Shown: positions 10,250 to 25,921 of the stretch, piece after piece
Position numbering within the stretch: position 1 is the first letter of the stretch
How the letters are laid out: each line of letters starts with the position of its first letter
Source: Candidatus Latescibacterota bacterium
GTDB taxonomy: Bacteria > Latescibacterota > UBA2968 > UBA8231
Assembly: GCA_965206595.1 (NCBI GenBank)
Contig: OZ242214.1
Location: 2,880,001-2,944,000, forward strand
Length of the DNA stretch: 64,000 bases
Direction: 5' to 3'
Program-made: the position numbers and the translations under genes
Notes under the pieces: model-generated
Database searches by the model: none
Told to the model about the DNA's origin: nothing
What the model saw: only the letters and a program-made list of their open reading frames with translations

Positions 10250-11452
10250 ATGACGATTGATATAAAGATCTTGAAAGAAGCGCTCGGCGGAACAGCTGCA
10301 GCACTTCGGTGTGTGACCGACTATCAGCCGGCAGGAGGCCCCGGAGACAAGGTATTTCCGCCGACTTACGAGGGCGGCAAATATGCCACCGAGGAGCGCG
10401 TCGACCCCGGGACCGGCGAGATACGGCAGTGCGTTCTCCTGGATTCGGTGCAGTCGCAAGCCAACCGCATGGAGCTGGCGCTGCTGGAGGCACACCGCAC
10501 CGGAACGGTACAGCTTCCTCTGCTGGTAACGCGCTTCAATCAAGAGGAACTACTCAAGAAGTTCTCGGTGACCAGCTTGGAGGCACCGCATCGCGTCGCG
10601 GATGCGCTGTTCCGCGACAGTCTGTTGAATGGAATGATTTTCCGTAAGTCAGAGAAAGGTCGAATACTCGACACTGCGGAAGTGCGCAACGCCACCGGCC
10701 TGTTTGGCCTGTGCCCGACCGCACTGGTATTCGGGCTGTGGGACTCGACCGGGCCGCGTGGCGGCTTGGGGTGCAAGTTTCAGCGCGCGGTGGTGTCGGA
10801 AATCGTGGGGTATGACGCCAGGGATGGAAAGAAAACGTCCAGCCGCATTGACCCGGCGGAGATCACGCTCGGCGCGGGTCCGCTGTACGAGCGTAAATCT
10901 GAAAGCGACGATACCTCACACTGGACCTTGGATGAGAGGGACGGCAACAAAAAGCTCAAAAAGACTGGAAGGCCATCGGAAGCGAATCATGGAAACGTCA
11001 CGCCAACCATTGCAGAAGGCGGATTTACGTTTTCGAGTGCCCGACAAACGACAACCTTGTCTCTGGCCGTTCTTCGCCGTCTCCGCTTTCCCCTCAACGG
11101 TGCCGCGGACTCCAACCACGATACCGATCTTGCGGCACGTACGGCGCTGGCCGCACTGGGGCTCGCCGCCGGTACTCTGGCGCGAGTTGATACGGATCTT
11201 CGTTCTCGTTGCCAGCTTTTTGCTGAACAAGAACCTGTGTGGGAACTGCTCGACCGCCCTGGAGAATCTCCGCAGAAATTCAAACTTGGTCCCGAAGATG
11301 CGCTGAATTTGTTGGCAGCGGCGATTACTGAGGCGAAAAACGCGGGGCTACCGTGGGATAACGAAATTGAGCTGACCCCATCGCCCGACCTTATTGAACT
11401 GGTTCGGCGCAGCCAGAAATTGGCCAGCACATCGGGAGAAGGGGGAGACTGA
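10250..11452 (+). CDS. csb1: Type I-G Cas7 (Csb1)
   Basis: PAGGPGDKVFPPTY, LLDSVQSQANRME, SLEAPHRVADA, PTALVFGLWDS, PSEANHGNV, LRSRCQL. Confidence 0.92.
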   Translation: MTIDIKILKEALGGTAAALRCVTDYQPAGGPGDKVFPPTYEGGKYATEERVDPGTGEIRQCVLLDSVQSQANRMELALLEAHRTGTVQLPLLVTRFNQEELLKKFSVTSLEAPHRVADALFRDSLLNGMIFRKSEKGRILDTAEVRNATGLFGLCPTALVFGLWDSTGPRGGLGCKFQRAVVSEIVGYDARDGKKTSSRIDPAEITLGAGPLYERKSESDDTSHWTLDERDGNKKLKKTGRPSEANHGNVTPTIAEGGFTFSSARQTTTLSLAVLRRLRFPLNGAADSNHDTDLAARTALAALGLAAGTLARVDTDLRSRCQLFAEQEPVWELLDRPGESPQKFKLGPEDALNLLAAAITEAKNAGLPWDNEIELTPSPDLIELVRRSQKLASTSGEGGD

Positions 11453-24992: not shown

Positions 24993-25921
24993 CGGAAAAT
25001 GAACCAGCTCCAGGTCTTCTGCTGAACGGGCTCGACGGCAGCAATCCGCTCGGATTTCTCGCGGCCGTTGGCGTGCTGCGTGTTGCTACAAAGGCTGACT
25101 CTTACTCGGACTGGCGTGTACGTTGGGAAATGCGAGGGGGGCACTGGTCCCCTGTATTGCTTGGGGACAAAGTGCTTGCAGCGGATGGTTTGATCGAACT
25201 ACTTGTGCCCGCTCTAACGGAAATGAAGGGCGATCATGCGTTTGGGTTTGCCGATGATCTGACGATCAACTGCGAGGAGTTCCGGCAAGTGGCTCAAGCC
25301 GCCTGCAACGCAGCGGATCTCAAAGATCGGCACTACGCCGATTTCATTGCCGCTTTCGGCTGTGATAGCGTCCCCATCTCCGCCAAGAATTCACGGATCC
25401 AGGACACAGCGCTGCGAACCATGAGCGGAGCAGGCCATCAGCACTTCATCGGCTCCATGCGAGAACTGGTTGAAAAAACCAACCCTGGTCATTTGCGCGC
25501 TTCCCTGTTCGAGCAGTGGCAGTACTCAGATTCCAAACCGAGTCTTCGCTGGGATCCTGTTGACGACCGCAGGTACGCCCTGCGTTGGAAGGAACCTTCG
25601 GGCGATCCCGTGCGCACAATGCGCGGCGCCAATCGTCTCGCGGTTGAAGCACTGCCCCTTTTCCCTACCGCACCTGGGGAAAGGAACCTGCATACGACCG
25701 GCTTTACACAGCGGCGAGGCGAAGGCGTGCTGTTTACATGGCCAATCTGGGAAGTGCCCTTGAACATTGACACCGTGCGTTCGCTGCTCAGCTTGGCCGA
25801 GTTACAAGAGCCTCGACCAGACCGGAAGAGTCTTTTTGCGAAAGGCGTTGTTGAGATTTTCAGGAGCCAGCGAATTACAAGGGACAAGTATCGCAATTTC
25901 ACACCTGCCGTACCTGCATGA
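24989..25921 (+). CDS. cas8g: Small type I-G Cas8-like subunit (Csb3/Cas8g2-type)
   Basis: LDGSNPLGFLAAVG, SGAGHQHF, RWDPVDDRRYA, GANRLAVEALPLFP, FTWPIW; coupled to cas3 (ATGA overlap). Confidence 0.7.
   Translation: MTENEPAPGLLLNGLDGSNPLGFLAAVGVLRVATKADSYSDWRVRWEMRGGHWSPVLLGDKVLAADGLIELLVPALTEMKGDHAFGFADDLTINCEEFRQVAQAACNAADLKDRHYADFIAAFGCDSVPISAKNSRIQDTALRTMSGAGHQHFIGSMRELVEKTNPGHLRASLFEQWQYSDSKPSLRWDPVDDRRYALRWKEPSGDPVRTMRGANRLAVEALPLFPTAPGERNLHTTGFTQRRGEGVLFTWPIWEVPLNIDTVRSLLSLAELQEPRPDRKSLFAKGVVEIFRSQRITRDKYRNFTPAVPA

Follow-up and report, generated by a model that had tools for sequence, protein, structure and literature searches.

The DNA analysed here, hereafter the window, is a 64,000-nt stretch (bases 2,880,001-2,944,000) of the single 7.05-Mb contig (63.7% G+C) that makes up the genome of a Candidatus Latescibacterota bacterium (contig OZ242214.1, assembly GCA_965206595.1). 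Between positions 10250 and 25921 of the window lies a type I-G CRISPR-Cas effector operon in which a type III-B cassette (csx1, cmr1, cas10 and cmr3 to cmr6; approximately 13.8-22.06 kb) is inserted between csb2 and cas3. Profile scans with NCBIfam, PADLOC and Pfam, which were used to call gene families throughout, returned the order csb1-csb2-csx1-cmr1-cas10-cmr3-cmr4-cmr5-cmr6-cas3g-short cas8g on the + strand, the same eleven-gene, one-strand order that the initial annotation of the window had claimed. The genes are given below with the matching models and their E values.

10250..11452, + strand: csb1/cas7g, I-G backbone subunit, 400 aa (TIGR02570 2e-21; PF09617 1e-52; PDLC01630 2e-50)
11452..13812, + strand: csb2, fusion of a Cas5-like N-terminal and a Cas6-like C-terminal part, 786 aa (TIGR02165 2e-85; PDLC01777 4e-123; both matches split in two pieces)
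12187..12870, + strand: phosphoribosyltransferase (PRTase)-like domain in the Csb2 linker, residues ~246-473 (split matches to hidden Markov models (HMMs); Pfam Pribosyltran 1.3e-3; adenine PRTase (APRT) profile; AlphaFold2 (AF2); Foldseek)
13805..15553, + strand: csx1, CARF-HEPN-CARF, 582 aa from GTG 13805, first cassette gene (PDLC01840 3e-137; TIGR02221; DxTHG motif)
15537..16748, + strand: cmr1 (TIGR01894 5.5e-14; PDLC01445 7e-26)
16745..18682, + strand: cas10/cmr2, 645 aa from GTG 16745 (TIGR02577 3.5e-42; PF22335; PF12469)
18679..19788, + strand: cmr3 (TIGR01888 2e-27, 96.2 bits against a curated cut-off of 100.4)
19806..20630, + strand: cmr4, RNA-cleaving Cas7 subunit (TIGR02580 8e-51)
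20627..21034, + strand: cmr5, small subunit (TIGR01881 6e-11)
21031..22062, + strand: cmr6, last cassette gene (TIGR01898 2e-36)
22044..24992, + strand: cas3g, helicase with C-terminal HD nuclease (TIGR02621 1.5e-220; PF18019, residues 813-906)
24989..25921, + strand: short I-G large subunit (Cas8u1/Csb3-type 'Cas8g'), 310 aa (PDLC01514 4e-95; NF049934 4e-85)

Both parts of the operon can be assigned by profile matches: Csb2, Cas7g, Cas3g with its C-terminal HD, a Cas4-Cas1 fusion and Cas2 are all present for type I-G, and Cas10/Cmr2, Cmr1 and Cmr3-Cmr6 each match their own NCBIfam model for type III-B. No Cas6, adaptation genes or array lie inside the nested cassette (13805-22062); these are common parts of III-B loci, not defining ones. 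The 310-aa protein carries two names, Cas8g in PADLOC (PDLC01514) and 'type I-G ... Cas3-extension family' in NCBIfam (NF049934), and Cas8g is described in three size variants (PMC9638904). The short variant is written csb1-csb2-cas3-cas8u1 in a myxobacterial survey (PMC11237760), and to judge from its sequence the 310-aa gene corresponds to a variant of this kind. Hence the label cas8g in the initial annotation is sound for a short large-subunit variant (PDLC01514 4e-95) and does not extend to Csx17, given the NF049934 name; the Csx17 model TIGR04113 found no match in the genome, and its control likewise matched no genome.

The operon is tightly packed. Measured from the best Shine-Dalgarno-preceded starts, each junction from csb1 through cas8g overlaps by 1-19 nt, apart from a single 17-nt gap between cmr3 and cmr4. 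The overlap is 1 nt at csb1/csb2, 17 nt at csx1/cmr1 and 4 nt at cmr1/cas10, cas10/cmr3, cmr4/cmr5, cmr5/cmr6 and cas3/cas8g. At the upstream border of the cassette, csx1 starts at GTG 13805 within the end of csb2 (stop 13812; 8 nt), and at the downstream border the cmr6 stop at 22062 overlaps cas3 by 4-19 nt, depending on whether cas3 starts at TTG 22059, GTG 22056 or ATG 22044. Overlapping stop and start codons at almost all junctions, both I-G/III-B borders included, had been noted before, and our measurements agree (13805/13812; 22044-22059/22062). The same goes for a Cas10 with GGDD and without HD next to a Cas3 with HD: Cas10 has GGDD at residue 403 and no HD motif in residues 1-150, and Cas3g has LLHDLGK at residue 817, in its C-terminal HD. 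Csx1 has an intact HEPN R-X4-H motif (RNAYAH at residue 373) and Cmr4 keeps D26. The cyclase palm (GGDD) and the CARF effector expected for putative cyclic oligoadenylate (cOA) signalling are both present. Terminator-like sites within the operon occur at chance (16 versus 17.5 +/- 3.9 in shuffles), and a promoter scan upstream of csb1 gave no + strand promoter; the method is weak, and we take from it only that the operon shows no conspicuous strong terminator inside.

Located 3' of cas8g are, in order, a 102-aa open reading frame (ORF), three AAA-ATPase_like/PDDEXK_9 copies, cas2, cas4/cas1g and the CRISPR array.

25955-26263: orf102, no family match
30410..30700, + strand: cas2 (TIGR01573 4e-8)
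30714..32489, + strand: cas4/cas1g fusion (NF049935 4e-221)
32672..39874, + strand (transcribed): CRISPR array with 98 identical 36-nt repeats CTTTCCGCGATCTGTTGATCGCGGCCTCATTGAAGC (repeat search)

All 99 copies of the I-G repeat, including a lone one at 40270, are free of mismatches, and a genome-wide search allowing up to 6 mismatches gave no copy elsewhere. In the predicted fold of the repeat (-14.4 kcal/mol, z -3.2), 4 nt precede an 8-bp stem with a 4-nt loop; a 12-nt tail follows, which reads CCUC and then AUUGAAGC. In Thioalkalivibrio sulfidiphilus I-G, studied by Shangguan et al., Csb2, which has two domains connected by a linker, cleaves the repeat on its own 4 nt 3' of the hairpin base to leave a canonical 8-nt handle, and it binds the 3' hairpin product (KD, dissociation constant, 43 nM) and not the handle (PMC9638904). 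The geometry of the repeat in the window fits this published cut, and the predicted cleavage would yield an 8-nt handle. A Csb2 scan of one genome per species gave 78 related loci with 50-85% identity to the query. They are spread over many phyla, among them Latescibacterota, Binatia, Nitrospirota, Acidobacteriota, Gammaproteobacteria and Chloroflexota. The 37 arrays detected in these loci all have 36-nt repeats with covarying stems and the handle ATTGAAGC; the 4 nt preceding the handle are CCTC in 29 of them and CCCC, CTCC or CTCT in the other 8. The arrays match the I-G repeat described as 'G-type', whose tail is TTGAAGC (PMC11237760). The handle ATTGAAGC was considered as an adaptation to Cmr and this was ruled out, given that it is invariant in the 37 arrays with or without type III; from the repeats compared, the handle belongs to the whole I-G family.

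The initial annotation had assigned the processing of CRISPR RNA (crRNA) for Cmr to Csb2, on the premise that no separate cas6 supplies Cmr. That premise held when the 7.05-Mb genome was scanned with six Cas6 models (TIGR01877, PF01881, PF10040, TIGR02807, PF08798 and PF09618): no standalone cas6 was found, five of the models having no match at E<=0.1 and PF08798 having a single one of 15.5 bits (E 0.064), below cut-off, in a 77-aa frame. The control of each model matched known genomes, that of TIGR02807 only weakly (one genome, below cut-off). By the same search method, TIGR02165 matched Csb2 and nothing else genome-wide; no other protein with a Cas6 domain was found. A whole-genome tblastn search with the island proteins gave no second cas10, cmr or csb. 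The claim of only one large array is correct for the island but not for the genome, where two further CRISPR loci, at 2.115 and 6.772 Mb, each combine a complete I-C set (cas3-cas5c-cas8c-cas7-cas4-cas1-cas2) with an array.

G000:C1 2.114-2.124 Mb: type I-C locus L001, own array, repeat end ATTGAAAC
G000:C1 6.771-6.786 Mb: type I-C locus L002, own array, repeat end ATTGAAAC

The arrangement of the 78 related loci was read by mapping the island proteins onto them, with the following outcome.

csb2 followed directly by cas3: 50 of 78 loci
cas3-cas8g upstream of csb1: 16 of 78 loci
5.0-8.5 kb between csb2 and cas3 (L009, L013, L016, L020, L037): 5 of 78 loci
other arrangement (L018, L028, L068): 3 of 78 loci
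contig end after csb2: 2 of 78 loci
csb2 incomplete in the locus: 2 of 78 loci

Three of the 78 (L013, L037 and L020) have csx1-cmr1-cas10-cmr3-6 at the junction of csb2 and cas3, and the synteny that the initial annotation proposed to look for in other genomes therefore recurs. Downstream of these three nested loci follow cas3, cas8g, cas4/cas1 and cas2; two of the loci then have an array whose repeats share the tail seen in the window. The genomes of all three gave no match to TIGR01877 (0/3) or PF01881 (0/3). Compared with L013 and L037, Csb2 is 75-77% and Cas10 65-67% identical; compared with L020, Csb2 is 78% and Csx1 72% identical, but Cas10 only 39%, Cmr3 44% and Cmr5 43%. The pairwise identities, with Cas10 of L020 at 39% against 78% for Csb2, point to two Cmr lineages in one slot. 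Other cassettes occupy the same junction. In L016 (12322-17313) it holds a Csm-type set, likewise free of cas6, of a 507-aa Cas10, Csm2, Csm3, Csm4 and a CARF-HEPN protein, and one weak Cas6-like match of 24.6 bits, below cut-off, is found elsewhere in that genome. In L018 (12264-14980) the slot resembles the Csm set of L016 before the contig ends, and in L009 (12452-19771) it contains a complete second I-G system of the Csx17 kind. A complete second I-G system (Csx17 type) also follows csb2 in L028 (13715-21436), and in L022 (17323-22027) a Csm-type set without cas6 is located after cas8g.

Run X1, possibly the source sample, holds 98% of the words, and its Logan short-read contigs match 13512-18793 and 18765-22500 with no differences. 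These two contigs (5282 and 3736 nt) cross the borders of the cassette, and both borders are thus bridged. Together with the identical gene order in three independently assembled genomes (L013, L020 and L037) and the start/stop codon overlap at each border, this makes it highly improbable that the nesting is an assembly artefact joining III-B and I-G loci of different molecules, even though the genome is apparently a metagenome-type assembly, the same samples often contain related I-G loci, and contigs from runs X4 and X6 join 13790 or 13820 straight to 22096. The X4 and X6 contigs come from other studies and are a cassette-free form of related organisms. A chimeric assembly had been named at the outset as a possible flaw, and the nested order withstood this check, with X1 bridging both borders and the architecture present in three other genomes.

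We consider it likely, from the sequence evidence above, that the nested Cmr cassette uses Csb2-matured crRNAs from the single I-G array and is expressed on one transcript with the I-G genes. The eleven genes would be transcribed together as one RNA, and the Cas6-like C domain of Csb2 would cut the array transcript 4 nt 3' of each repeat hairpin, yielding crRNAs with the 8-nt 5' handle AUUGAAGC. The same crRNAs would then serve two effectors: a Csb1/Csb2/Cas8g Cascade acting with Cas3g against DNA, and Cmr, which would load the crRNA after 3' trimming. Once a complementary transcript is bound, Cmr4 would cleave it, and the HD-less Cas10 would make cOA and so switch on the CARF-HEPN-CARF RNase Csx1. 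A precedent exists in Haliangium ochraceum, whose cmr1-6 were expressed in E. coli with csb2 as the Cas6 (10.1101/2023.06.23.546230), and a Csb2-fed Cmr is hence plausible and not new. An alignment of 75 sequences shows no variation at H747 and H749 of Csb2, two histidines ~38 residues before the C-terminus that, from position alone, may be equivalent to H503 in the comparison with T. sulfidiphilus Csb2. The wording 'Csb2 handing crRNA to Cmr' in the initial annotation is best read as Csb2 making crRNA that Cmr uses, as a physical hand-over from Csb2 to Cmr is not supported by this analysis. The Csb2 of B. animalis acts as a stand-alone enzyme with turnover (10.1101/2022.08.19.504415), and by analogy turnover of free Csb2 followed by 3' trimming would be enough to supply Cmr. 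As far as sequence can go, the interpretation is supported.

Several points weigh against a Cmr supplied by Csb2. The Cas6 models could miss a very divergent Cas6, and the completeness score of the genome is 92.9% despite its single contig. Loci that have no type III genes show an identical handle and repeat, and the RNA therefore has no feature tuned to Cmr in particular. T. sulfidiphilus Csb2 remains on the 3' hairpin (KD ~43-55 nM; PMC9638904), so release to Cmr would need turnover or trimming. In addition, nested Cmr cassettes are rare (3 of 78 loci), Cmr3 scores 96.2 bits, slightly under the curated TIGR01888 cut-off of 100.4, and a search of sequencing runs gave no RNA run that holds this stretch.

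Cmr might use the I-G array while its crRNA is made without the Cas6 domain of Csb2, by Csb1 or by a host RNase such as RNase E. RNase E reportedly processes crRNA in a cyanobacterial III-Bv system. A route of this sort is conceivable if Csb2 stays on the 3' hairpin, as in T. sulfidiphilus (PMC9638904), and B. animalis Csb1 also processes pre-crRNA (10.1101/2022.08.19.504415), but we judge it unlikely, because the T. sulfidiphilus repeat is cut by Csb2 only, not by Cas7 or Cas8g (PMC9638904), the repeat in the window fits the Csb2 geometry exactly, and csb2 was the sole processing gene needed in the H. ochraceum construct (10.1101/2023.06.23.546230).

The G+C content at third codon positions (GC3) is 0.59-0.74 from csb1 to cas8g (10250-25921), 0.85-0.94 in cas2 and cas4/cas1 (30410-32489) and 0.89-0.91 in neighbouring housekeeping genes (5107-7810). 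The adaptation and housekeeping genes match the host in GC3; the effector operon, with lower values than either, gives the impression of having been imported recently and placed beside an older adaptation module. The module with cas2 preceding cas4/cas1 is 75-85% identical in only three related loci (L010, L049 and L069); the remaining loci have cas4/cas1 before cas2, at ~45% identity. A recently acquired effector operon (GC3 0.59-0.74) could mean that the III-B cassette is a passenger that is silent, not functionally integrated or dependent on the I-C arrays through Cas5c, and the rarity of the nesting (3 of 78 loci) and the two I-C loci in the genome, with repeats ending in ATTGAAAC, can be read in the same way. 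We find this distinctly improbable, since all seven cassette genes are intact with catalytic motifs, the cassette is translationally coupled to I-G genes at both ends, and the arrangement has been kept in four genomes with 39-82% protein identity among them. The Cas5c handle is 11 nt long as opposed to the 8-nt type III tag, which counts further against such a passenger.

III-B systems without Cas6 that use crRNAs of a co-resident type I system are well known and are represented by H. ochraceum Cmr and Myxococcus III-B/MxI-B, in which the Cmr module likewise has no Cas6 or adaptation genes; in Myxococcus III-B/MxI-B the repeats are common to both systems. In Marinomonas I-F/III-B, the III-B system is also said to use crRNAs of the co-resident type I system. 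Myxobacterial III-B clusters are often without Cas6 and an adaptation module, and the same survey mentions 'seven hybridized systems', which may include similar hybrids (PMC11237760). Unlike a Cmr encoded at a separate locus, such as the H. ochraceum operon with its own locus tags Hoch_1313-1323, the Cmr genes here lie inside the I-G effector operon with codon overlaps at both borders. The locus has in common with T. sulfidiphilus-type I-G a Csb2 that fuses Cas5 and Cas6, Cas7g, a Cas3g with C-terminal HD, Cas4/Cas1 and a 36-nt repeat with TTGAAGC tail, but differs in a 310-aa large subunit that is not Csx17/Cas8g1, an insert of ~230 aa in Csb2, and seven type III genes interrupting the operon. 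A nested I-G/III-B operon, varied cassettes at one junction and coupling across two borders were not found described in the literature searched, mostly non-subscription journals, and PMC10333696, PMC10952691 and a Methylomagnum plasmid locus have nothing on such nesting. The mechanism is already known; the nested, slot-like architecture, as far as we found, is a new version of a familiar type of sharing, unusually tight and recurrent. One proposed role of type III systems that draw on type I crRNAs is to back up type I immunity against phages that escape through mutations in the protospacer adjacent motif (PAM) or seed. Here, the back-up would be wired into the same operon and depend on the fused Cas5-Cas6 subunit, which poses the question of how a processing enzyme that remains on its product in Cascade could also feed a second effector.

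Csb2 has 786 aa rather than ~500, and its HMM matches are split around residues 246-475 by an insert of ~230 aa. In 30 aligned sequences the insert is strongly conserved, with HTG..G..RL.RQA, DDF.GQG.T and LT.SEARYL..SP invariant and the motif of the phosphoribosyl pyrophosphate (PRPP) loop, MVDDFVGQGGT, invariant or nearly so. Compared with the PDB, the insert profile matches APRT at the PRPP loop (E 2e-4). The AF2 model of the insert has a predicted local distance difference test score (pLDDT) of 81.6, and its Foldseek matches, listed to rank 46, are all type I PRTases, PRPP synthetases, PurR or ComF; the top PRTase matches have probability 1.0 and modest TM-scores of 0.29-0.44, with ComF the best. 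Loop motif and model together place the insert in the type I PRTase fold. With regard to phosphoribosyl transfer, a putative activity, the residue before GGT is Gln, where canonical PRTases usually have Thr. Of the 78 loci, 55 have the insert, irrespective of type III, and 21 otherwise syntenic ones do not. A III-B-specific role was ruled out, as most of the 55 have no type III genes; an insert that occurs regardless of type III is not a III-B adaptation.

Searched against 1.84 billion representatives, the insert profile hit 2501 clusters, 828 of them at E<=1e-30, and the best 150 of the 2501 include solo proteins of ~240 aa, proteins of 500-900 aa with the domain at the C-terminus and proteins of 2,000-5,000 aa that carry it internally. 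Among seven relatives of the insert that were scanned for domains, Phage_Mu_F is present in two and large-polyvalent-protein domains (LPD37/38/39, ddrB-ParB, ART-PolyVal) in three. In PLSDB, 187 plasmid records match, and 12 of the 15 listed match the insert alone (residues 204-482, 38-41% identity); the insert-only plasmid genes are annotated kfrC or phosphoribosyltransferase, where kfrC is a name that covers different proteins and is used here as an annotation string only. The insert corresponds to the 'PRTase of invasive elements' (Iyer et al. 2017), proposed to make or sense a nucleotide at DNA entry (PMC5512222). The DD motif and ComF-like fold are shared with the members of that group, which occur in phage and plasmid polyvalent proteins, in MuF fusions and as solo genes, whereas the Csb2 domain is embedded in a host defence protein and not in a protein of a mobile element. 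A PRTase in a Cas5-Cas6 linker has no mention in the passages of PMC5512222 that deal with PRTases or CRISPR or in the literature searched for Csb2 with phosphoribosyltransferase, and the insert may be more novel than the nesting. A Vicinamibacterales genome has a solo 288-aa gene (L077:9914-10780) that is 71% identical to the Csb2 insert. A divergent I-G locus lies ~3 kb upstream of this gene, and the gene after it encodes an AAA_14/DUF4143 ATPase.

A broader reading, which we regard as possible but doubtful, is that in this widely transferred I-G lineage the junction of csb2 and cas3 is a plug-in slot for interchangeable effectors that share Csb2, the adaptation module and the array, and that the PRTase of Csb2 gates crRNA supply or effector assembly. 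The docking cassettes would be the two Cmr lineages, the Csm set with a short Cas10 and the second Cascade, each translationally coupled to the host operon and served by one Csb2, one adaptation module and one array. Csb2, as the hub, would have captured a PRTase of the plasmid or phage type that might detect or synthesise a nucleotide as DNA enters. The recurrence of cassettes at one junction and the spread of the operon across many phyla (50-85% identity) suggest a modular building of multi-effector CRISPR islands, and with 55 of 78 loci carrying it, the PRTase-bearing Csb2 is common and might point to a so far undescribed way in which type I-G immunity is regulated.

Some further features of the window were recorded. 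The cas-proximal end of the array (32672-33300) has odd spacers of 22, 27, 42, 20, 53, 38, 23 and 77 nt, and inside the two longest of these lie one repeat of which only the first 20 nt remain and another whose loop is interrupted by ~20 nt. The remaining 90 spacers measure 32-44 nt, and the full repeats are all identical. The lone perfect repeat (40270-40305) lies 395 nt past the array end. Upstream of the operon, the ORFs of both strands at 8851-10260 gave no family match in NCBIfam, Pfam or PADLOC. A perfect sigma-70 consensus (TTGACA, 17 nt, TATAAT; 12/12) is present on the minus strand at 10178-10206, 44 nt upstream of the csb1 start and pointing away from csb1, with no family-matching ORF downstream of it. 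Between cas8g and cas2, positions 26269-30403 are occupied by three tandem, partly decayed paralogues of AAA-ATPase_like (PF09820) plus PDDEXK_9, of which two more copies are located in the genome at 0.459 and 6.484 Mb. Of the 78 related loci, 14 have homologues adjoining the I-G genes, in most cases immediately upstream of csb1. Tandem repeats (periods 36 nt and 108 nt) are found at 41123-41781, inside a long minus-strand ORF (40607-42019) without family match, and at 60177-60524.

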